From: an uncultured archaeon
GTDB taxonomy: Archaea > Asgardarchaeota > Lokiarchaeia > Sigyniarchaeales > SOKP01
DNA length: 64,000 bases
Assembly (NCBI GenBank): GCA_964486045.1
Contig: CAZALK010000003.1
Span: forward strand, 64,001-128,000
Direction: 5' to 3'
The notes beneath the pieces are model-generated. The model searched no databases. It saw only the letters and a list, made by a program, of their open reading frames with translations, and was not told the origin of the DNA. The translations under genes were made by a program, and so were the position numbers. How positions within the stretch are numbered: position 1 is the first letter of the stretch; every line of letters starts with the position of its first letter. This document shows, piece after piece, positions 31,030-51,123 of this stretch.

Positions 31030-32307
31030 TTATTCATTAATATTATTTATTTTTTCCCTAATTTCTTCCATTTTTTCCATATTATCATAATCAATATGTC
31101 TAATGTTAGTGAAAAAATAGGGGAATATCGTTATTAAAATTCCAATGAGAGCGCATAGCAGATATAGAAATGATATTCCTATAATCTCACTTAATGTGCC
31201 TGCCAAAATAGCTCCTAAAGGCGAACCAATCATCATTAATGTACTTAATATAGAAGAAACTCTCCCCATTTTATCATGAGGAACTGTAATTTGAACAACC
31301 GTCATTACAATTATGTTTATTACCGGCATAATGAACCCCATTATAAATGCTCCGATACCTATCAGAGGATAAAAACCAATTGGAGCAAGGGCATATATTA
31401 AATAACCAATATTTACTACAATCATTCCGATAAACAAAATTCTCATTTTATTTTTCCATCGTTTCTTAAAAAAAGGGATCAATGCGCCTAAAATCATTCC
31501 TCCCTGCATAATCATTTGGATGATTGCTAACGCAAAGTTATCGCCACCGTGTATATACTTTATAAAAAATGTGGCTAGAACCATTAAAGGTTGCGTCAAC
31601 ATGGTTAATAACATCGCGATCAGCATAATTGTTAGAAGTCCAGGAACATTTTTCATTACTTTAATACCTTCCTTAAAATCTTTGACAAAGGATTTTCTTT
31701 CAACATGATCCTTGCTAATTTGAAGCGGAGGTAATTTTAGAGTTAAAAGAGGAACAAGCGCAATAAAGAAAGTAATTACATCTATCCAGAGAATATATTT
31801 TATTTCAACAAAAAATAATAAAGTTGCCCCCACTCCTGGTCCTATAAATTGTATGATACCTATAAATAAGTATCTTATACCATTGACTTTCCCTAGCTTA
31901 TCTTGTGGAACCATAGATGGTAAAATTGCCATCACTGTTGGTTGATGAAAGGCTTGACATATACTTCGAAACCCAAGGAATATAAATACAAGCCAAACTT
32001 CTGCTGAATCTAAGATGAAAAATATTGTTAAAATAATCGTTAAACACGCTTGCAATGAATCTACAACTAAAATTATCATCTTCCGATTGAGCCTGTCTGA
32101 AATAACACCAGCAAAAGGGGTTATGATAAGTAAAGGAATCAGGTTAATCAAACTTGCCAAGGATAACATTAATGGACTTTTTGTTACGTCAGTAATCCAC
32201 ACAAATATTACAAAATAGACAATTAATGATCCTAATAACGAAAATAATTGCCCAAACCAAAATTCCATATAATTTCTTAGGCTTTTCTGATTAACTGTTT
32301 CTTGCAA
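31030..32307 (-). CDS. MFS transporter (MefA/DHA3-like)
   Basis: GQLFSLLGS, AGV.SDR.NRK, MGRVSS; 12 TM. Confidence 0.92.
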   Translation of the reverse strand: MQETVNQKSLRNYMEFWFGQLFSLLGSLIVYFVIFVWITDVTKSPLMLSLASLINLIPLLIITPFAGVISDRLNRKMIILVVDSLQACLTIILTIFFILDSAEVWLVFIFLGFRSICQAFHQPTVMAILPSMVPQDKLGKVNGIRYLFIGIIQFIGPGVGATLLFFVEIKYILWIDVITFFIALVPLLTLKLPPLQISKDHVERKSFVKDFKEGIKVMKNVPGLLTIMLIAMLLTMLTQPLMVLATFFIKYIHGGDNFALAIIQMIMQGGMILGALIPFFKKRWKNKMRILFIGMIVVNIGYLIYALAPIGFYPLIGIGAFIMGFIMPVINIIVMTVVQITVPHDKMGRVSSILSTLMMIGSPLGAILAGTLSEIIGISFLYLLCALIGILITIFPYFFTNIRHIDYDNMEKMEEIREKINNINE

Positions 32308-32497
32308 TTAAGTCTATCTCACAAATTTTTCGCTTTAATTTTCAAATATTTCATTAAATTTTAAAATTATTATCAAAAATGGTTCGGGAATTTCCAAATA
32401 AAACCATATTATTATAAAAAGAGATATAAATGCTTAAAGTGAATCTACTATTTCTATTATTGTTTTTAAGAAATCTCTGGGCACTATATATTTATTC

Positions 32498-33775
32498 TTA
32501 TTTATAGATGTTATTTATTTTTTCTACTATAACTTCAAAATTATCAAAATCCACATGGCGTATTTTTGTAAAACGCCAAATTGAACATATAATTAATAAT
32601 CCAATGACCCCGCTAAATAGAAAAACAATTCGAATCCCAATTAAATCGGCAAGAGGTCCTGAAATAATAGTTCCTAATGGGAACATCGCCATTGATAATG
32701 ATTGGATTACGGAGGAGACTCTTCCCATCTTATCTGGAGGAACAGTAGTTTGTATTATCGTCATATAAATTGTATTTACAACTGGCAAAATAAATCCTAC
32801 TATTCCTGTTCCTACCCATATTATTGAAAAGACCCTCGTCGGGGTAAAAGCTAAAACCGAGAACATTCCCATCAAAACCAACAAACCCGAAAAATAGATG
32901 GTTACCTTATGTTCCCATTTCTTCTTTAATGTAGTCACAACTCCTCCTAAAATCATCCCCACATTAAGGCACACCATGATAAGGGCCAAATCAAAAGCCG
33001 TCCCCAAATGAGTTTGGCTAACATAGAAAGGTAATAAAACATTAATAGGGGAAACTAAAAAATTAAGAAATATGTCCAAAATCAGAAGAATTACCAATCC
33101 AGGGATCAGTTTGATTACTGTAATCCCCTCCTTGAAATCTCTCTTAAATGATGTGGGTTCCTTTTTTTCACTTATTTCAGCTAAGTTTCTTATACTAGGT
33201 ATTTTAATTAGTAATAAAGGAACAATAGCAATACAAAATGTAAATACATCAAGCCATAGAATTACTTCGAGGGGAAAAAATATATAAAGTGTCGCTCCTA
33301 TTACAGGTCCTATAAGTTGTATTAAACTTGTAAATAAGGAACTTACCCCATTTATTCTACTTAGTTTATCTTTAGGAACCATTGTGGGAACAATAGCACT
33401 TATGGCAGGCATATGAAATGCTTGACATACTCCCCTCAAACTGTTTATCAAAATAACTACTATAGGATTTGCAATACCAAAATAAAATAAAAAAATAATC
33501 CAAACCGTTACTAACGCTTGAAAAGAGTCTACGATTGCTATAAGTTTTTTACGATTCCATCTGTCTATTAGCACTCCTGCAATTGGAGTAATTAAAACAA
33601 TTGGTAAAAAATATAAGAAGGTACCGAGTGAAAGGAAGAAAATACTACCTGTAATCACTGTAATCCACCATGTAATAGCGAATTGAACTACTAGCGAACC
33701 CATGAGTGAAACTAATTGCCCCGACCAAAAAAAGAGATAACTCCTAAATGTATTATTATTTGCTAATTCTTCCAT
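32498..33775 (-). CDS. MFS transporter (MefA/DHA3-like)
   Basis: GQLVSLMGS, AGVLIDRWNRK, MGRVSS. Confidence 0.92.
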   Translation of the reverse strand: MEELANNNTFRSYLFFWSGQLVSLMGSLVVQFAITWWITVITGSIFFLSLGTFLYFLPIVLITPIAGVLIDRWNRKKLIAIVDSFQALVTVWIIFLFYFGIANPIVVILINSLRGVCQAFHMPAISAIVPTMVPKDKLSRINGVSSLFTSLIQLIGPVIGATLYIFFPLEVILWLDVFTFCIAIVPLLLIKIPSIRNLAEISEKKEPTSFKRDFKEGITVIKLIPGLVILLILDIFLNFLVSPINVLLPFYVSQTHLGTAFDLALIMVCLNVGMILGGVVTTLKKKWEHKVTIYFSGLLVLMGMFSVLAFTPTRVFSIIWVGTGIVGFILPVVNTIYMTIIQTTVPPDKMGRVSSVIQSLSMAMFPLGTIISGPLADLIGIRIVFLFSGVIGLLIICSIWRFTKIRHVDFDNFEVIVEKINNIYK

Positions 33776-33819
33776 ATTATATCCCCTAATTATCTAAAAA
33801 ATAGATTTTTAAAAAAATT

Positions 33820-35106
33820 TTAGATTGTTAAGCTTTCTATTTTTTCATTGATTTTTTCCATTTCACTTTTACTATCAAGGTCTACTTTCCTAATTCCTGT
33901 AAAACTCCAAAAAGCTATAGTAATAACTACTCCCGCTAATCCACCGAAGACAAACAAAGCTTGAATTCCTACTAAAAGTGCTAGGGGCCCAGAAATTAAA
34001 GAACCAATTGGTGATATCGCGGAAGAAAATGCACTATCTATTGAAGAAACCCTTCCTAATTTATCTGCAGGCACTGTAGTTTGAACAAATGTTTGATATA
34101 GTGTGTTTATTATTGGTAAATTAAACCCAAGGATTATACCGCCTATTCCCATAATAATAAATGAACCTGAAGGAGCCAGGGCAAAAATTATATACCCTCC
34201 CAAAGCCACTAGTATACTCACAAAAATTATCCGAATTTGTTTGTTCCATTTTTTCTTTATCATTGTGAATATAGCTCCGGCGATCATTCCTCCTGTAAAA
34301 GTCATCTCAACAAACGCTAGATGTCCTACTCCTCCTCCATGATTAATAATAAATAAAGGCATGAGAGTGGTAGCCGGTGTTAATATAAAATTAAGAAACA
34401 TCGATAATACTGCCATAATAATTAAACCGGGAACCATTTTTATCGTTTTAATACCTAATTTAAATTCTTTTAAAAAAGAAATCTTTTTAGCATCATCTTC
34501 AGAATGATTCAACTGTTTTACTGAGGGAATTGAAATCGCTAATAAAGGTACCAATGCGATAAAAAATGTGATTATATCTACCCAAAGTATTAGATACATG
34601 GATAAAAACACTAGTAACAGAGCCCCAACAAATGGCGCTAGGAGTTGAACTACACCTGTAAATAAAAAGTTGATTCCATTAATTTTGGTTAACTTATCTT
34701 TAGGAACCATTGTAGGAATGATTGAATTTACCACGGGTACATGGAATGCTTGAAATATACTCCGTATACCGATAAAAACCAATACAACCCCTATGTTTCC
34801 CAAACCAAATTGAAACATAATTATTAGTAAAAATGTCGTAAATGCCTGTGATGAGTCTGCAACTAAAATCAATGTCTTCCTATTCACTTTATCTGCAATA
34901 ACGCCGGCAATAGGCATAAACAATGTCATCATCAGTATAGATACAAATGTTGAGATTGCAAGTAAAATTTCGCTGTCGTAGACATCTGCAATCCACCAAG
35001 TTATCGCAAAAAATACAACCATAGAGCCAAGTAATGAAAATAATTGTCCTGACCAAAAAAATAAATAATTCCTAAAGGTCGTTTGATCTGCTAATTCCTC
35101 CATCAA
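33820..35106 (-). CDS. MFS transporter (MefA/DHA3-like)
   Basis: GQLFSLLGS, AGVIADKVNRK, LGRVSS. Confidence 0.92.
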   Translation of the reverse strand: MMEELADQTTFRNYLFFWSGQLFSLLGSMVVFFAITWWIADVYDSEILLAISTFVSILMMTLFMPIAGVIADKVNRKTLILVADSSQAFTTFLLIIMFQFGLGNIGVVLVFIGIRSIFQAFHVPVVNSIIPTMVPKDKLTKINGINFLFTGVVQLLAPFVGALLLVFLSMYLILWVDIITFFIALVPLLAISIPSVKQLNHSEDDAKKISFLKEFKLGIKTIKMVPGLIIMAVLSMFLNFILTPATTLMPLFIINHGGGVGHLAFVEMTFTGGMIAGAIFTMIKKKWNKQIRIIFVSILVALGGYIIFALAPSGSFIIMGIGGIILGFNLPIINTLYQTFVQTTVPADKLGRVSSIDSAFSSAISPIGSLISGPLALLVGIQALFVFGGLAGVVITIAFWSFTGIRKVDLDSKSEMEKINEKIESLTI

Positions 35107-35133
35107 ATATCCCCTATAATATTCACGTTTTTT

Positions 35134-36267
35134 CTATACATTTTTTATCCTCCATTTTCCTTCCTCATAAATTACAGCATCATCTGCTATGATTTTTGAA
35201 CCAGGTACTTTCATATCCTTAAGTATATCCCAATGAACTGCAGATTTATTTGTTCCCCCACATTCTTCAAAACCATTACCTAGAGCAAGGTGTATTGTAC
35301 CACCAATTTTTTCATCAAATAACATGTTTTTGGTAAACTTTGTAATCCCAAAATTCGTACCAATAGCAAATTCTCCAAGTTTATTAGCATTTTCTATCTT
35401 TAATAGTTCTTTTAGAAGAGATTCACCTTTTTCTGCTTTTAAGATAGATACTTCACCTTCTTTAAATTCTAAATATATGTCTTCAATTTCTCTCCCGTAA
35501 TATATCCCAGGATACGTAAATCTTATATGACCATTTGCAGAATCCTCAATAGGGCTCGTAAAAATCTCTCCAACAGGTAAATTACTCTCACCACAAGCAT
35601 TTTCCCATTTTCTCCCCTTTACATTAAATGTTAGATCTGTGTCCTCTCCAATTACCTGGATTTTTTCAATATTATCTAAGTAATCAGTAATCATTTCTTG
35701 CTCTTTTTTCATTTTTCGCCATTCTTCAACTGGATTCTCTTTATGTAAAAATAAGCTTTTAAATACAAAATCCGAATATGAGAAAAGATCCATGTTGGCC
35801 TCCTGAGCATTCGCTTGACTAGGATAAGGAACAATAACCCACTTCATCTCCCCGCTAGCAGCCCGATGATCAAAAATCTCCATTAATTCTACTCGTTCCG
35901 GTGCTGAAGTTAATTTTACCATCTTTTCAGGCTCAATACCACTATATTTACGTGTATTGTAGTCTGCTCGAATTTGAATTAGACGATCAAATTTCTTTAA
36001 CATTGTTTTTTCACCATCATCTACGAATGATAACTGCTCATCAGATGCGTGTTTTAAGAAAAGTTCTCGCATCCCTTCTAATGTTGGAAGTGCCATAAGA
36101 TGAGCACCAGCTCTAACTATCTCAACATTTAATGCTAGAAATAACTCTCTTGCCAAACTGGGCCCTATAAGAGCCACTTGATGCCCTTTCTCTATCTCAA
36201 GTGAATACTTAATTACAATCTTTGCAAGCTTTTCATAATTATTATTGTACATATTTCCACCAATCAC
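35134..36267 (-). CDS. Aminopeptidase, M29 family
   Basis: NLP.GEIFTSP, LGEFAIG, LFDEKIGGTIHLALG and N.SAVHWD motifs. Confidence 0.92.
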   Translation of the reverse strand: MIGGNMYNNNYEKLAKIVIKYSLEIEKGHQVALIGPSLARELFLALNVEIVRAGAHLMALPTLEGMRELFLKHASDEQLSFVDDGEKTMLKKFDRLIQIRADYNTRKYSGIEPEKMVKLTSAPERVELMEIFDHRAASGEMKWVIVPYPSQANAQEANMDLFSYSDFVFKSLFLHKENPVEEWRKMKKEQEMITDYLDNIEKIQVIGEDTDLTFNVKGRKWENACGESNLPVGEIFTSPIEDSANGHIRFTYPGIYYGREIEDIYLEFKEGEVSILKAEKGESLLKELLKIENANKLGEFAIGTNFGITKFTKNMLFDEKIGGTIHLALGNGFEECGGTNKSAVHWDILKDMKVPGSKIIADDAVIYEEGKWRIKNV

Positions 36268-36297
36268 TTTTGTATTTTTTTTTTTCCTTTTTTATTC

Positions 36298-37218
36298 TTA
36301 TAGGGTGTCTATTACTTCATTTAGTTTTGAAATTACTTCTTCAGGAGTACTTGTGAAATTAAACACTCCTGCATCTAAATCCAAATCACCATCAATCCCT
36401 TCAGCTGCTAATTCATAAATTATATTTTCGGCTTCTTCCTTAGAAATTTCAAGCGCTTGAGATAGTTTTTCAATGGGGAGTGTTTTTTGAAGCTTTATTA
36501 ATCCTTGGATTCGTTTTTTAATCCTCTCTTTTTGAGCCCCATTCTGAGATTTTTCAACCTTAACTTTCTTAGATTGCTTCTTAAATTTACGGTCTAATTC
36601 CCTGCCTAATTCTTCTATCCCCGAATTTTCTACTGCATGTTCTATTTTTGCCCCCATCTTTTCCATTTTTCGTCCCCATTGCTCTATTTTTGCGATGTCA
36701 CCGATATTATTTTTGACAAATTTCATCGATTTTCGAACTAGCTCTGAAACTGAAGCTCCTAAACCATCAGCCCAATCTCTCCATTCTTCACTCATCTCAG
36801 GGTCAACCGAGATATTAATTCTTTTTACTGCTTTTTCCACTTTTTTTCTAACTTTTTTGTCAAATTTTGCTTCATGCCCTTCAATTTTCTTTTTAAGACG
36901 TTGTAGCTTCTTATTTGCCTTTGTGACATGCTCTCTTGCATCATCTCCATGATGCTCTAACTCTCCTTTAATTTCTCCCAGTTCTTTAAGTAAATCATTT
37001 CTTTCTTCAATCAGATCTTCCAAATCGTCCTTTAAGTCTTCTTTAATATCATCAGCTTCTTCATTTAAATCCTCTATTACATCCTGTAAATTATCATGGA
37101 TATCCTCTAATTCATGCTTAAGTTCATCACGAAGGCTATCTATTTTCCATTTTACCTTCCCACCATCATCTTTATTTTCTTCTTTTTCTTTCCTCTCTTC
37201 ATCTTTCGACATACTCAT
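36298..37218 (-). CDS. Coiled-coil + ribbon-helix-helix + PCI-like winged-helix protein
   Basis: Acidic heptad N-half; RINISVD...W...A...G.SVSELVR RHH; LPIEKLSQAL.IS.EEAE.II.EL...GI.G.LD...GVF.F C-terminus. Confidence 0.7.
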   Translation of the reverse strand: MSMSKDEERKEKEENKDDGGKVKWKIDSLRDELKHELEDIHDNLQDVIEDLNEEADDIKEDLKDDLEDLIEERNDLLKELGEIKGELEHHGDDAREHVTKANKKLQRLKKKIEGHEAKFDKKVRKKVEKAVKRINISVDPEMSEEWRDWADGLGASVSELVRKSMKFVKNNIGDIAKIEQWGRKMEKMGAKIEHAVENSGIEELGRELDRKFKKQSKKVKVEKSQNGAQKERIKKRIQGLIKLQKTLPIEKLSQALEISKEEAENIIYELAAEGIDGDLDLDAGVFNFTSTPEEVISKLNEVIDTL

Positions 37219-37226
37219 TCCTCCTT

Positions 37227-37940
37227 TTACATATCCTCTTTATTTATTTTTCTTGGTAATTTTAAATCTACAGCAGAAATTTGAACAGCCCCATGAGTTA
37301 AAATAGATTTTTCGTCTATTTCTATCTTATCTACATAATAAACTGTTCCCATTACCTCCGTACCTCTACCAATTTTTACGATTCGACCTTTAACATCTTC
37401 TTCAACTAGGGTTCTTATAAGAATGATATTATTATTAGCATTAACGCTTCCATGCACTTTACCAGGATGTTTAAAAACATTTCTACCTCTTAAGGCTCGT
37501 CCTCGACCTATGAACACGCTATTTCCAGTGACGTCTCCATAAATTGTTGTAGATCCCGTAATATCAATAGTGTTTCTTGATAAGAGATCACCTTTAACGA
37601 TAAATGAACCTGAAGATCTAATTCCTTGAAGAGCTTCTACATTGTTTCCTGCTCTTAAGGAACCTGAACTTGAAAATGCACCTTTAACAAAAATTCCCCC
37701 TTCTACTCTAGATGAACCAGACGATGTTGCAATCCCATCACCATGAATAGCTCCCATAAGTCTAAATGACCCTGACGATCTAAGATCTCCATGAACCGTT
37801 AGATCTCCTGATCCCCGAAAAGAACCAGATGATTGAAAATTTTTACACTCAAAATTTCCATCAATTCTGGCCGAACCCGATACGTGCAAATCGTCATCAA
37901 TTTTTCCTGCTGAAAGTCTTCCTGACCCAGAAATTCTCAT
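37227..37940 (-). CDS. Bactofilin-like (polymer-forming cytoskeletal) beta-helix repeat protein
   Basis: Repeated ~18-aa SSGS.R..G.....G units; V.G..VKIG.G..V..V.Y ending as in Bacillus YhbE/F-type proteins. Confidence 0.72.
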   Translation of the reverse strand: MRISGSGRLSAGKIDDDLHVSGSARIDGNFECKNFQSSGSFRGSGDLTVHGDLRSSGSFRLMGAIHGDGIATSSGSSRVEGGIFVKGAFSSSGSLRAGNNVEALQGIRSSGSFIVKGDLLSRNTIDITGSTTIYGDVTGNSVFIGRGRALRGRNVFKHPGKVHGSVNANNNIILIRTLVEEDVKGRIVKIGRGTEVMGTVYYVDKIEIDEKSILTHGAVQISAVDLKLPRKINKEDM

Positions 37941-38048
37941 ACTTATTATACCTCTTCTTGTTATAACTTCTCGATTTAATTATTATTTTTGTTATTATTA
38001 TCATTATTCTTTGTAAGAATTTTAAAAAAAATATTTGATAAATTTAAT

Positions 38049-38126
38049 CTAGTACCTATACATTAATTTTGAATAGGTATTGGCTTTTACTCGCTCCAAA
38101 TCTTCATAACTTTTTGATTTTTTCAT
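38049..38126 (-). CDS. 25-aa small ORF MKKSKSYEDLERVKANTYSKLMYRY
   Basis: Strong SD GGAGGT (38135-38140) 8 nt before ATG; hand translated. Confidence 0.65.
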   Translation of the reverse strand: MKKSKSYEDLERVKANTYSKLMYRY

Positions 38127-38245
38127 GATGTTTTACCTCCAATTTTTTTGGTTAATTTTTTTTAGGTTTTTTTTTTTTGAATAATTATTTGATAATTTTT
38201 ATGACTGTGAACGTGAATACACTTTTAAAAAAAAAGAGTGTGTAA

Positions 38246-38320
38246 TTATTGAATTCTATTGACGTAATACATATTTTTGATAATTATTAATTCCTTCTCA
38301 TCTAATCTTTTTCTATTCAT
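38246..38320 (-). CDS. 24-aa small ORF MNRKRLDEKELIIIKNMYYVNRIQ
   Basis: SD GAGGT (38328-38332); TTTATA box near 38400-38407; followed by hairpin and T9 tract. Confidence 0.6.
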   Translation of the reverse strand: MNRKRLDEKELIIIKNMYYVNRIQ

Positions 38321-38738
38321 TTTTTTAACCTCTTATTTTTTTTTTCAGTGTGTTTTTTTATTTTTTTGTTGTGTACTGATCTATAATTAGTGTGTATCAT
38401 ATATAAATGTTTTGATTTGAAAAATGATGTGAAATGCGTTTTGATGGGCGATATTGATTTCTAATACAATTTTAATGAATTTTAGTGTCTGAGAAAAAGG
38501 TGTGGAAAAAGTTTGTGTATTGAATATTAAAAAATAGTTGAGTTTTTTAAAAAGAAGAAAACGGGGCTTGAGAGCACATTTTTTGCGGTGTGTATAGTTG
38601 TATAAAAATATTAACTTCTAGTTAATTAAGAAATATCACAAAAGAGCAAATTTATTTAATATTTGAAAATATCTTTAGAAAATAGGGAAGGGAAATTAAT
38701 TAGAGGATAATTTGGGCTATCATTGGATTTCGCCCTCT

Positions 38739-38760
38739 ATTAAACTCTATAGAGTTTAAT
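38739..38760. repeat. Perfect 22-bp palindrome
   Basis: attaaactctatagagtttaat equals its reverse complement. Confidence 0.85.
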
Positions 38761-39126
38761 CTCTCCCTGATTATTTTATTTCAGCTCAGATTTCTTTTCC
38801 CTTCTCTTCTTGGAATAAAATACGGATTTTCCCACTATAATACCAGCCTATGCGATTTTTGTATCAATTTGGTTTGTAGATAAAAGAGGATTTTAGCCCT
38901 CTTCTCTCCCTATTCATTTTTTGTCTGTAATCTGATAAATAATTTTCTAATGGAAAGTTTACACAAAGTCTTAGACTTGTTTTAGACTGAATAGTGAAAT
39001 TTATCCTAATCCATTTTGTCTTGATTTTACGAGGTAGATTAAAAATAGCAAAATTAAGAGGCAGTAAATCAGAAGTAGCATTAAGTTAAGAGTCTTATTA
39101 TTTTAAAATTTTTGTTACAAATATTC

Positions 39127-39546
39127 TCATGGGAATTTTTGCGAATTTTGAAACGCTTTTGCTTTCTGTAACAATTTTTTAGCGTTATCATATGTTAAAC
39201 GTCTGAATGCTTTATGAAATGTCAACCAGACGTAATCTTCATGCTCATAACTTATTTTAACATCTTTAGTGTTAGCTTTGATAAGGTAACAATTTACGTA
39301 CTTATGAATCCTCTGACCTTTAAAAGTAAAGGAATATTCGTATTTTTCTTTGAATCCTTTTATAATTATCGCTTCAGTAATACTCGTCTCTTCTTCTAAT
39401 TCCCTTAAAATTGTTTGCTCATCAGATTCATTTTCTTCTATATGACCTTTTACAAATTCCCAATGACCTAAGCCATATTTAAGTAGTAAATATTCATTTT
39501 CATTATATACGATTGCTGCAACTGAAAATTCTTCTTTTAAATTCAT
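39127..39546 (-). CDS. Nudix hydrolase, Ap4A hydrolase-like
   Basis: GHWEFVKGHIE.NES...LREL.EET Nudix box; SYEHEDY.W. Confidence 0.9.
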   Translation of the reverse strand: MNLKEEFSVAAIVYNENEYLLLKYGLGHWEFVKGHIEENESDEQTILRELEEETSITEAIIIKGFKEKYEYSFTFKGQRIHKYVNCYLIKANTKDVKISYEHEDYVWLTFHKAFRRLTYDNAKKLLQKAKAFQNSQKFP

Positions 39547-50699: not shown

Positions 50700-50901
50700 A
50701 ATCCATTCACAGTTCTTCATTTTGAACTAATCCTAAATCTTATAAGGACATGAGCATCATAGTTATTTTTGGTGGTATTAAGACCAGAATCTAAATATAG
50801 TCTAAGAGTCCATTAAGAGTTCCTATTCTTAAACTATATATTAAATCCTTGGAATATTAATATTATAAAAAAACAAAAAAAACAAAAAAGTGAAAAAAAA
50901 A

Positions 50902-51123
50902 ATGACCCAAGCTTATGAAGAAGTAATGGAAATGAAAAGTCTTGAAGTTGAAGAGATTGAACAACCTGAAGTTCAAGAATCAATAGAAAGTGAAGTTGAT
51001 GAACTCCTTGGAGATTTAAATCCAAGATATTTTGAGGAAGGTTTTTCAATGAATGAAGCAAAAGACAGAATCGAATCAGCTAAAGCTTATTCGGATTTTA
51101 GCTTCAATACATATGGATTTTAA
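50902..51123 (+). CDS. Small acidic protein (73 aa)
   Basis: Glu-rich ORF with A-rich leader and downstream T-tract; ends DRIESAKAYSDFSFNTYGF. Confidence 0.7.
   Translation: MTQAYEEVMEMKSLEVEEIEQPEVQESIESEVDELLGDLNPRYFEEGFSMNEAKDRIESAKAYSDFSFNTYGF

Follow-up and report, generated by a model that had tools for sequence, protein, structure and literature searches.

The stretch of archaeal DNA analyzed here (64,000 nt; the window) contains a run of six genes preceded by two unannotated micro-ORFs, all encoded on the minus strand, as are all features described below. In order, the genes encode a bactofilin-like protein of 237 aa (37227-37940; two stretches matching PF04519, 42.2 bits versus a cut-off of 27.9), a 306 aa protein with an acidic coiled coil, a ribbon-helix-helix-like motif, and a C-terminal winged helix (36298-37218; referred to as RHH-wHTH), an M29 aminopeptidase of 377 aa (35134-36267; PF02073, 267.7 bits over profile positions 3-406 of 406), and three MFS transporters of the DHA3 (Mef/EntS-like) kind (33820-35106, 32498-33775, and 31030-32307). 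Pfam searches recovered this co-oriented run as it had been described in an earlier, sequence-only reading, including the PCI/winged-helix match of the second gene and MFS_1 and MFS_3 matches above cut-off for the transporters, and the gaps between genes are mostly short (8, 30, 27, 44, and 190 nt). The efflux and hydrolase character of the locus also held. The transporters had been called MefA-like exporters; they are pumps of the Mef (DHA3) kind but not Mef equivalogs, scoring 128–195 bits against the NCBIfam Mef(A)/(B)/(C) models, far below cut-offs of 675–870, and 204–249 bits against TIGR00900 (DHA3), under its cut-off of 319.6. Besides the bactofilin, regulator, M29, and MFS genes, Pfam revealed neither a modifying enzyme nor an ABC exporter for peptides in the operon. 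Four relatives carry an inserted nitroreductase gene, for which a role as SagB-type RiPP dehydrogenase was considered (G003 and G008) and rejected, as Pfam identifies a plain nitroreductase and a cyclodehydratase is absent.

The RHH-wHTH gene is present in a single copy in the genome. Its RHH-like strand-helix-helix stretch begins at R133 and is invariant across 18 sequences, while profile support for the motif is limited to a weak NikA-like match in a short paralogue (19 bits versus 27) and the stretch is of low confidence in the AlphaFold monomer. The winged helix (residues 227–305) is predicted with a pLDDT of about 80–86. The PCI match (PF01399, 25 bits versus 22) covers the winged-helix part alone (profile positions 26-82 of 84), and the structure model contains no PCI-type helical repeat domain. 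The RHH-wHTH alignment, searched against PDB sequences, returned coiled-coil noise and nothing else.

Upstream of these genes, micro-ORF A (38246-38320) encodes a 24 aa peptide of family A with the core ELIIIK, and micro-ORF B (38049-38126) encodes a 25 aa peptide of family B, part of one superfamily with families C and C2 in which a Lys is invariant and a Tyr near-invariant. Both were found again as first described, each with a Shine-Dalgarno (SD) sequence (GAGGT at 38328-38332, 7 nt 5′ of the ATG of A; a GGAGG core at 38135-38140, 9 nt 5′ of the ATG of B), an A-rich leader, a basic N-terminus, and M-Y-Y or M-Y-R-Y close to the end. A genome-wide search found one copy of each family, which rules out a multi-copy mobile element. 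The micro-ORF peptides are hydrophilic, with a net charge of about +1 to +4 and many aromatic residues, and lack a signal peptide, a double-glycine leader, and any hydrophobic stretch. An antimicrobial-like amphipathic helix was rejected, since their hydrophobic moments do not exceed those of shuffled sequences (median fraction of shuffles equally or more amphipathic, 0.55–0.63). The combination of a leader or signal with a modifying enzyme or dedicated peptide exporter that characterizes RiPPs and bacteriocins was found in neither the peptides nor the operon. Rfam and tRNA scans of the whole window gave no matches, and a scan for sigma-70 promoters and intrinsic terminators, models not relevant to archaea, remained at shuffle level.

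The TATA box that had been noticed near 38400 lies at 38400-38407 (promoter P1) and is conserved at the nucleotide level, together with its flanks, in all 14 aligned orthologous loci. It is the sole canonical TATA box of the locus and is located upstream of the micro-ORFs. Transcription would start near A38377, within a conserved GATCA 23 nt downstream of the box; a genome-wide histogram of TATA positions was too sparse to be informative. Three TACACAC-type boxes spaced by 21 bp (38348-38396) cover the P1 start region and leader, and two operator-like TACACA(C/A) boxes belonging to the same cluster lie further upstream (38588-38594 and 38513-38519, spanning 38513-38594). Across the whole 5.18 Mb genome, at least four such boxes within 600 nt occur at this locus only, and at least three within 90 nt on one strand occur nowhere else. 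In some relatives the boxes are inverted, which points to a site recognized at the DNA level, and the RHH-wHTH protein is their candidate binder.

A T9 run (38227-38235) lies 10 nt past the stop codon of A, and a T8 run (38024-38031) follows B, so that in the window a terminator-like signal separates each micro-ORF from the structural genes. The T8 run is unusual, as the last micro-ORF before the operon is not followed by a T-run terminator in 13 of 15 loci of relatives. After non-last micro-ORFs, oligo-T runs are present in 16 of 16 cases, begin 5–13 nt past the stop codon in every one, and number two or more in 15; by comparison, two such runs follow just 3.2% of long ORFs. A hairpin had been proposed to accompany the T9 run between the two micro-ORFs. 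The T9 run stands, but the hairpin is not significant (MFE of −3.3 kcal/mol, z = −0.2, with 75 of 200 shuffles folding equally well) and is not conserved in relatives; being the only candidate, it leaves no alternative RNA structures coupling ribosome position to termination. A TACACAC box (38238-38244) lies on one side of the T9 run and an inverted GTGTA half-box (38218-38222) on the other (together 38218-38244). A conserved motif follows at 38207-38217 (TTCACGTTCAC in the window, ATCACGATCAT in most relatives); it is found 24–36 nt past the stop codon in all 16 units with a further unit or the operon behind them and is missing from three orphan cassettes. The T9 run probably terminates unit A and may also serve as the T/A-rich box of a second promoter, as suggested by the half-sites that flank it as they do the TATA box and by a motif restricted to places where a further unit follows. 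A transcript shared with the operon is likely only for the last micro-ORF of relatives, which lies 22–69 nt from the next gene with no T-run between.

These T-runs resemble known archaeal terminators. aCPSF1 binds U-tracts of nascent RNA; in Methanococcus, at least two U4 tracts give the strongest, still partial, aCPSF1-dependent termination (median about 52–55%), and a lokiarchaeal aCPSF1 acts alike in that host (PMC8716108). Internal operon terminators keep expression of the upstream gene above that of the downstream genes (PMC10450193). The module shares with both the presence of at least two U-tracts after a gene, but the Methanococcus terminators act in operons of ordinary genes, whereas in the module a micro-ORF takes the upstream place and operator-like sequences lie on both sides of the T-run (PMC8716108, PMC10450193).

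Of the 45 loci of the family, 43 have micro-ORFs of these families in the same position. Genus g20 and two genomes of family f2 have other micro-ORFs at the equivalent place, with four tandem copies in one f2 genome (G038) and two in the other (G055). Conservation upstream of orthologous bactofilin genes, which the sequence-only reading had named as the check on its proposal, was borne out. The reading frames are open in all relatives, while the other two frames contain 7–46 stops per family, and length changes are in frame. In-frame pN/pS ranges from 0.34 to 0.52 overall, compared with 0.56–1.41 off frame. For family A (eight distinct orthologues) the values are 0.34 in frame versus 1.41 and 0.56 off frame, and for family B 0.52 versus 0.95 and 1.35, although both sets were chosen by residue-fixing patterns, which lowers pN somewhat. 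Family C, with 23 distinct copies of exactly 27 codons each, gives 0.43 (dN/dS 0.29) versus 0.90 and 1.01. A strict SD core lies 7–11 nt upstream of 27 of 31 micro-ORFs, compared with approximately 15% of long ORFs and a background of 4%. The peptide families are highly divergent between genera on an unchanged architecture, and aromatic or hydrophobic C-termini recur among them. A profile search of 1.84 billion representatives gave 21 matches, 20 of them peptides of 29–56 aa from the same family and one an odd 185 aa repeat protein; the ESM Atlas search gave no usable match. In dozens of genomes the annotation lacks these genes, and where they are called they are nameless or labeled ‘hypothetical protein’. 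The comparative data indicate that micro-ORFs A and B are real, conserved protein-coding genes.

The module spans an order in Lokiarchaeia (Promethearchaeota), and one genome of the Asgard lineages with the module is a single contig of 6.04 Mb. It consists of a TACACAC-bracketed promoter, one to four micro-ORFs of 21–40 aa in variable tandem copy number, the RHH-wHTH gene, often with a bactofilin gene ahead of it, and DHA3-type MFS pumps, with or without hydrolases. Linkage to the pumps, one to five per locus, is tight and conserved. The constant partner of the micro-ORFs is the RHH-wHTH protein rather than the bactofilin or M29. The bactofilin is absent from the module in G012 and G020 and in the loci L058, L060, L070, and L089, and such modules retain their micro-ORFs; M29 is present in zero to two copies among relatives and missing from many loci, so neither is an obligatory partner. 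In two second loci (L049 and L050), the genes behind the micro-ORFs encode a short RHH-wHTH paralogue and a hydrolase, and in L072 the RHH-wHTH gene is driven directly by the same promoter. Intact orphan cassettes, comprising the promoter, a family C ORF, and T-runs, were also found (L048, L055, and the second unit of L051), with a convergent gene or nothing downstream, so these micro-ORFs are not confined to positions in cis upstream of genes to regulate. The L055 and L051 orphans share flanks and therefore represent one locus kept in two species.

We propose that A and B are small-protein genes, presumably translated, of a fast-diversifying set that heads a conserved module, and that they encode trans-acting microproteins with a dedicated, operator-controlled promoter and U-tract terminators that would hold peptide levels above those of the operon; to this reading, drawn from sequence comparison, we give about an even chance. 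Micro-ORF A would be driven by P1 under operator control, and most transcripts would end at the oligo-T runs right after the stop codon, as at archaeal U-tract terminators of the internal-operon kind, leaving the peptide in excess of the downstream products. Micro-ORF B and the operon would be expressed by read-through, from the second, similarly bracketed promoter suggested by the box arrangement at the T-run, or by both. Autoregulation of the module is probable, through binding of the RHH-wHTH protein to the TACACAC boxes. The peptides would act in trans, most plausibly on this regulator, to which position links them, or on the pump module, rather than arising merely as leader by-products. 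A role as small proteins produced in excess over the operon is more likely than an antibiotic-type leader-peptide switch. However, changing peptide families on a constant architecture would also fit upstream ORFs whose translation outweighs their product, and the constant, close spacing between stop codon and T-run (5–13 nt), which a translation-coupled gate would require, counts against action in trans.

Leader peptides acting in cis, as in the attenuator put forward by the sequence-only reading, are the strongest alternative, one we consider unlikely without dismissing it. A ribosome slowed or stalled near the end of a non-last micro-ORF would cover the U-tract and hinder termination, for example by blocking access of aCPSF1/FttA, and so permit read-through into the operon, as with TnaC and Rho or erm and mef but with no hairpins. 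The fixed placement of the T-runs, the single canonical TATA box ahead of the micro-ORFs, pumps of the Mef/DHA3 kind, recurring aromatic or hydrophobic C-termini, an architecture kept across the order while peptide families change, and aCPSF1 binding to nascent U-tracts (PMC8716108) all agree with it. The conserved peptides and the efflux locus bear out part of the earlier proposal; the attenuator is weakened because the hairpin is lost, with no other stable or conserved alternative RNA structure, because orphan cassettes with nothing to regulate stay intact across species, because the last micro-ORF mostly lacks a terminator (13 of 15 loci), and because the bracketed T9 run and the motif behind it, present only where a further unit follows, suggest a second promoter. 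Purifying selection over the whole peptide length also argues against it. A combined version, a hairpin-free, translation-gated terminator in which the ribosome masks the double U-tract from aCPSF1/FttA while the peptide also acts in trans on the RHH-wHTH regulator, seems to us more doubtful again; the translation state or an exit-tunnel ligand would then set read-through into the efflux and detoxification operon.

It is improbable that the peptides are secreted signals or antimicrobials that M29 trims, the MFS pumps export, and the RHH-wHTH protein may sense. Tandem, copy-variable, fast-diversifying small genes next to one to five pumps and a regulator, and encoding cationic, aromatic-rich products, would suit this role, but the peptides have no export signal and no more amphipathicity than shuffles, neither a modifying enzyme nor a peptide ABC exporter was seen in the operon, and M29 is often missing; the earlier suggestion of peptides processed and exported by the peptidase and MFS set finds no support. 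DHA3 pumps are, moreover, known for small molecules and not for peptides of 25–30 aa. About equally improbable is a partition-like or cytoskeletal module resembling parC-ParM-ParR, in which the TACACAC array would be centromere-like, the RHH protein the adaptor, the bactofilin the filament, and the peptides accessory. The order of repeat array with promoter, filament gene, and RHH gene fits, as does the coiled coil of the RHH protein, but several modules do without the bactofilin and retain micro-ORFs, regulator, and pumps, the short paralogue is paired with a hydrolase instead, pump linkage is tight and conserved, and the locus lies on the chromosome in one copy. That the frames are open by chance in an A-rich, non-coding leader, as the very short ORFs, A/T-rich sequence, and high nucleotide conservation of the promoter region might suggest, is hardly credible and already contradicted by comparison, with frames and SD cores retained in >40 loci, in-frame length changes, and pN/pS well under off-frame values.

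Among known systems, the leader-peptide attenuators of bacterial resistance genes (erm, including ermA with two tandem leaders, and mef/msr), together with trp and tna, are close in layout. As in the module, short SD-led ORFs there precede inducible genes, in the present case with Mef-kind (DHA3) pumps among the genes behind, a terminator signal follows directly after the ORF, and the tandem pair found here has a precedent in the two leaders of ermA. Unlike them, the module lacks alternative hairpins and uses an archaeal oligo-T run as terminator, its peptides are selected along their full length and occur in free-standing cassettes, the operon-nearest ORF is mostly unterminated, and the operon opens with a bactofilin gene and the gene of a DNA-binding protein. 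In autoregulated RHH operons with repeat arrays (ParR/parC, CopG, Arc/Mnt, and type II antitoxins), short repeats likewise bracket the promoter of an RHH-encoding operon, but here one protein joins the RHH-like motif to an acidic coiled coil and a winged helix, box binding is predicted, and micro-ORFs lie between promoter and operon. Small proteins that modulate larger partners, such as sP26 of Methanosarcina mazei, AcrZ, SgrT, and SinI, are similarly <50 aa, missed by annotation, and encoded next to or with their partner; the module peptides differ in being hydrophilic, without membrane helices, and of several families with variable copy number. In Sinorhizobium meliloti, the leader-type peptide peTrpL acts in trans to control a multidrug efflux operon (PMC7298713). 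It resembles the present case in its leader-type character, its length of at most a few tens of residues, and its link to efflux, and differs in being bacterial, in originating from a classical trp hairpin attenuator, and in acting post-transcriptionally with an sRNA (PMC7298713).

No paper describing this module was found in the literature. To our knowledge, leader-peptide control is not established in any archaeon, and in Asgard archaea hardly any work has addressed small proteins or upstream ORFs. What emerges is a compact, order-wide module with a unique operator array, a dedicated RHH-wHTH protein, fast-diversifying peptides under selection, and putative U-tract terminators at fixed distances. 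It provides a defined list of microproteins, unannotated and probably highly expressed, to seek in lokiarchaeial proteomes, and a natural setting in which to test how U-tract termination in archaea interacts with translation. If true, the translation-gated terminator would be the first case of leader-peptide attenuation to be described in Archaea. The module as a whole is probably an autoregulated circuit that controls a bactofilin as well as efflux pumps, in the prokaryotes most closely related to eukaryotes.

Two short open reading frames, each led by a Shine-Dalgarno (SD) core and an A-rich leader, lie on the minus strand of the window between a TATA box (38400–38407) and six co-oriented genes, as the sequence-only reading had described. 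Micro-ORF A (38246–38320; 24 aa) has a GAGGT core 7 nt 5′ of its ATG, and micro-ORF B (38049–38126; 25 aa) a GGAGG core 9 nt 5′ of its ATG. A T9 run (38227–38235) begins 10 nt past the stop codon of A, and a T8 run (38024–38031) lies 3′ of B. The genes behind them, spaced by 8, 30, 27, 44, and 190 nt, encode a bactofilin-like protein, a 306-aa protein with a PCI/winged-helix match, an M29 aminopeptidase, and three MFS transporters, which had been called MefA-like exporters and are of the MFS_3/DHA3 kind but score far under the Mef model cut-offs. Rfam and tRNA scans of the window gave no matches. A stretch of ~0.5 kb (38600–39126), in which no ORF is convincing, separates the outermost of the operator-like TACACAC boxes from a NUDIX gene (39127–39546, minus strand), and the upstream neighbor of the module is not conserved among relatives. 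The genome is 5.18 Mb in size with ~31% G+C and carries one copy each of peptide families A and B, at this locus only; the relatives compared belong to the Promethearchaeota, i.e., Lokiarchaeia of the Asgard group.

The proposed conservation of the peptides upstream of orthologous bactofilin genes was borne out: all 17 such loci of the genus have one to three same-strand micro-ORFs directly upstream, and pN/pS was lower in frame than off frame. Layouts comprise A+B (the window's), C+C2, C-C-C2, C-A-C2, or a lone A, B, or C, where family A is marked by an ELIIIK core and B, C, and C2 can be aligned as a single superfamily in which one Lys never varies and one Tyr hardly does. Every copy keeps its frame open, against 7–46 stops per family in the other two frames, and lengths differ by whole codons. 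Pooled Nei-Gojobori counts over 23 distinct copies of family C, each exactly 27 codons long, yielded a pN/pS of 0.43 (dN/dS 0.29) in frame versus 0.90 and 1.01 off frame; values were 0.34 versus 1.41 and 0.56 for family A, and 0.52 versus 0.95 and 1.35 for family B, both of these sets having been chosen with patterns in which certain residues are fixed. A strict SD core precedes 27 of 31 micro-ORFs by 7–11 nt, compared with ~15% of long-ORF first ATGs and 4% of control positions. An ATGGTGG conserved 5′ of the second ATG of family C is, judging from the loss of its frame in three loci, an SD and not coding. Across the window's genome, an SD-like core occurs at −18 to −3 in ~15% of long-ORF first ATGs against a 4% background, reflecting either minority SD use or many true starts that are not the first ATG.

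A search of 1.84 billion representative proteins with the B/C/C2 profile recovered 21 matches only, 20 of which are like peptides of 29–56 aa without a name or labeled “hypothetical”. Also among the matches is a 185-aa protein (P0014) with five tandem 15-residue repeats resembling the B/C peptide core, a likeness that may be due to chance. Our literature search found no paper describing this module. Within the order, profile matches are confined to one family (f1): 29 of the 52 genomes in the genus, plus a small number from two other genera. Genus members missed by the profile carry family A copies or a different peptide pair instead, and a separate B-like family of 28–30 aa is found in genus g14. 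SD-led micro-ORFs are present in 43 of the 45 family loci with enough upstream sequence; at one of the two exceptions (L072) the same promoter directly drives the regulator gene, and no micro-ORF was found upstream at L083. Outside the family, a 40-aa ORF with a double T-run behind it is present in genus g20. In family f2, one genome (G038) has four tandem micro-ORFs of 29–32 aa, and a single-contig genome of 6.04 Mb carries a pair of 24–25 aa (L086:2526–2603 and L086:2643–2717); in both, the micro-ORFs are placed upstream of the same operon and downstream of a TATA box bracketed by TACACAC. The four G038 micro-ORFs (L085:900–1411, plus strand) are nearly identical with T6–T7 after each, and the bactofilin-like gene behind them has a long poly-acidic N-terminus.

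The promoter upstream of micro-ORF A (P1) is conserved at the nucleotide level, with its TATA box between TACACAC boxes and a conserved GATCA, likely the transcription start (near 38377 in the window), 23 nt 3′ of it. These boxes are inverted in some lineages, which makes a DNA-binding site more likely than an RNA motif, and the window locus alone in its genome has at least three within 90 nt, or at least four within 600 nt. TAA is the stop codon of every micro-ORF other than the last before the operon; T-runs begin 5–13 nt past it in 16 of 16, with at least two runs in 15 of 16, while two runs follow only 3.2% of long ORFs. A conserved ATCACGATCAT-type motif lies 24–36 nt past the same stops. 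The last micro-ORF mostly has no T-run (13/15) and is 22–69 nt from the next gene, which probably makes it the operon's first cistron; the window, with its T8 run 3′ of B, is an exception. The window's T9 run has a TACACAC box on one side and an inverted half-box on the other, an arrangement like that around the TATA box, and this T/A-rich stretch may therefore double as the core of a second promoter.

In Methanococcus, aCPSF1-dependent termination is strongest with two or more U4 tracts but is still partial (median ~52–55%), and a Lokiarchaeal aCPSF1 acts alike there (PMC8716108); where an operon contains an internal terminator, the genes before it are expressed more highly than those after it (PMC10450193). 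In the simplest reading, P1 would yield much peptide and little operon. The translation-sensing attenuator proposed earlier retains some appeal: the stop-to-T-run spacing matches its requirement, the architecture outlasts the peptide sequences, and peTrpL (PMC7298713) offers a precedent for a leader peptide that also acts in trans on an efflux operon. However, the hairpin around T9, taken for a terminator, is weak (−3.3 kcal/mol, z −0.2), and orphan cassettes keep P1, a family C ORF, and T-runs intact with a convergent gene or nothing behind, one of them with common flanks in two species. Among the comparative findings, these orphans decide against a leader that works in cis only; their peptides must be kept for their own sake. 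We regard an attenuator as unlikely. The post-T-run motif is absent from three orphan cassettes with nothing downstream, which fits a role in expression of the next unit.

The constant partner of the micro-ORFs is the 306-aa protein (36298–37218, minus strand), which combines an acidic coiled coil, an invariant stretch whose strand-helix-helix pattern resembles a ribbon-helix-helix motif, and a winged helix predicted with a pLDDT of ~80–86 (RHH-wHTH). Homologs occur in 41 of 52 genomes of the genus, 29 of 42 of g14, and 6 of 14 of f2, and the gene is single-copy in the window's genome. At second loci, micro-ORFs are followed by a short RHH-wHTH paralog and an alpha/beta hydrolase. The g14 ortholog at L058:345–1286 (plus strand) carries a zinc ribbon at its N-terminus, with a stretch of ~30 Asp where the coiled coil would be. 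Other members vary, with 0–2 M29 copies and 1–5 pumps. That the peptides are processed by the peptidase and exported by the MFS set, as also suggested earlier, is very improbable, given that they have no leader and no excess amphipathicity and that M29 is dispensable. A partition-like module, for its part, is weakened by modules without bactofilin (L058, L060, L070, and L089) and seems remote.

Four genomes contain a nitroreductase (PF00881, 242 aa; L033:10659–11387, minus strand; also L037, L052, and L061) inserted between the last micro-ORF and bactofilin, its SD directly adjoining the stop of that micro-ORF. In the same interval, two genera have a small-ORF family with the motif LNPRYFEE (L043:193–312, plus strand; a 37-aa ORF at L077), which also occurs inside an 84-aa open frame of the window (50869–51123, plus strand). 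In the bactofilin ortholog of genome G007 (L041:4497–4520), the conserved N-terminus lacks any ATG, GTG, or TTG; an ATT occupies the ATG position of the others, 8 nt past a GAGGTGG core.

Where the transcripts begin and finish, which protein binds the boxes, and on what the peptides act are all inferred here. The obvious candidate for the binder is the RHH-wHTH protein, which would autoregulate its own module through the TACACAC boxes. Because the peptides of the orphan cassettes appear worth keeping for themselves, we favor, with about even confidence, the reading that the micro-ORF products are trans-acting microproteins, whose most plausible target would be the RHH-wHTH regulator or else the pump module.
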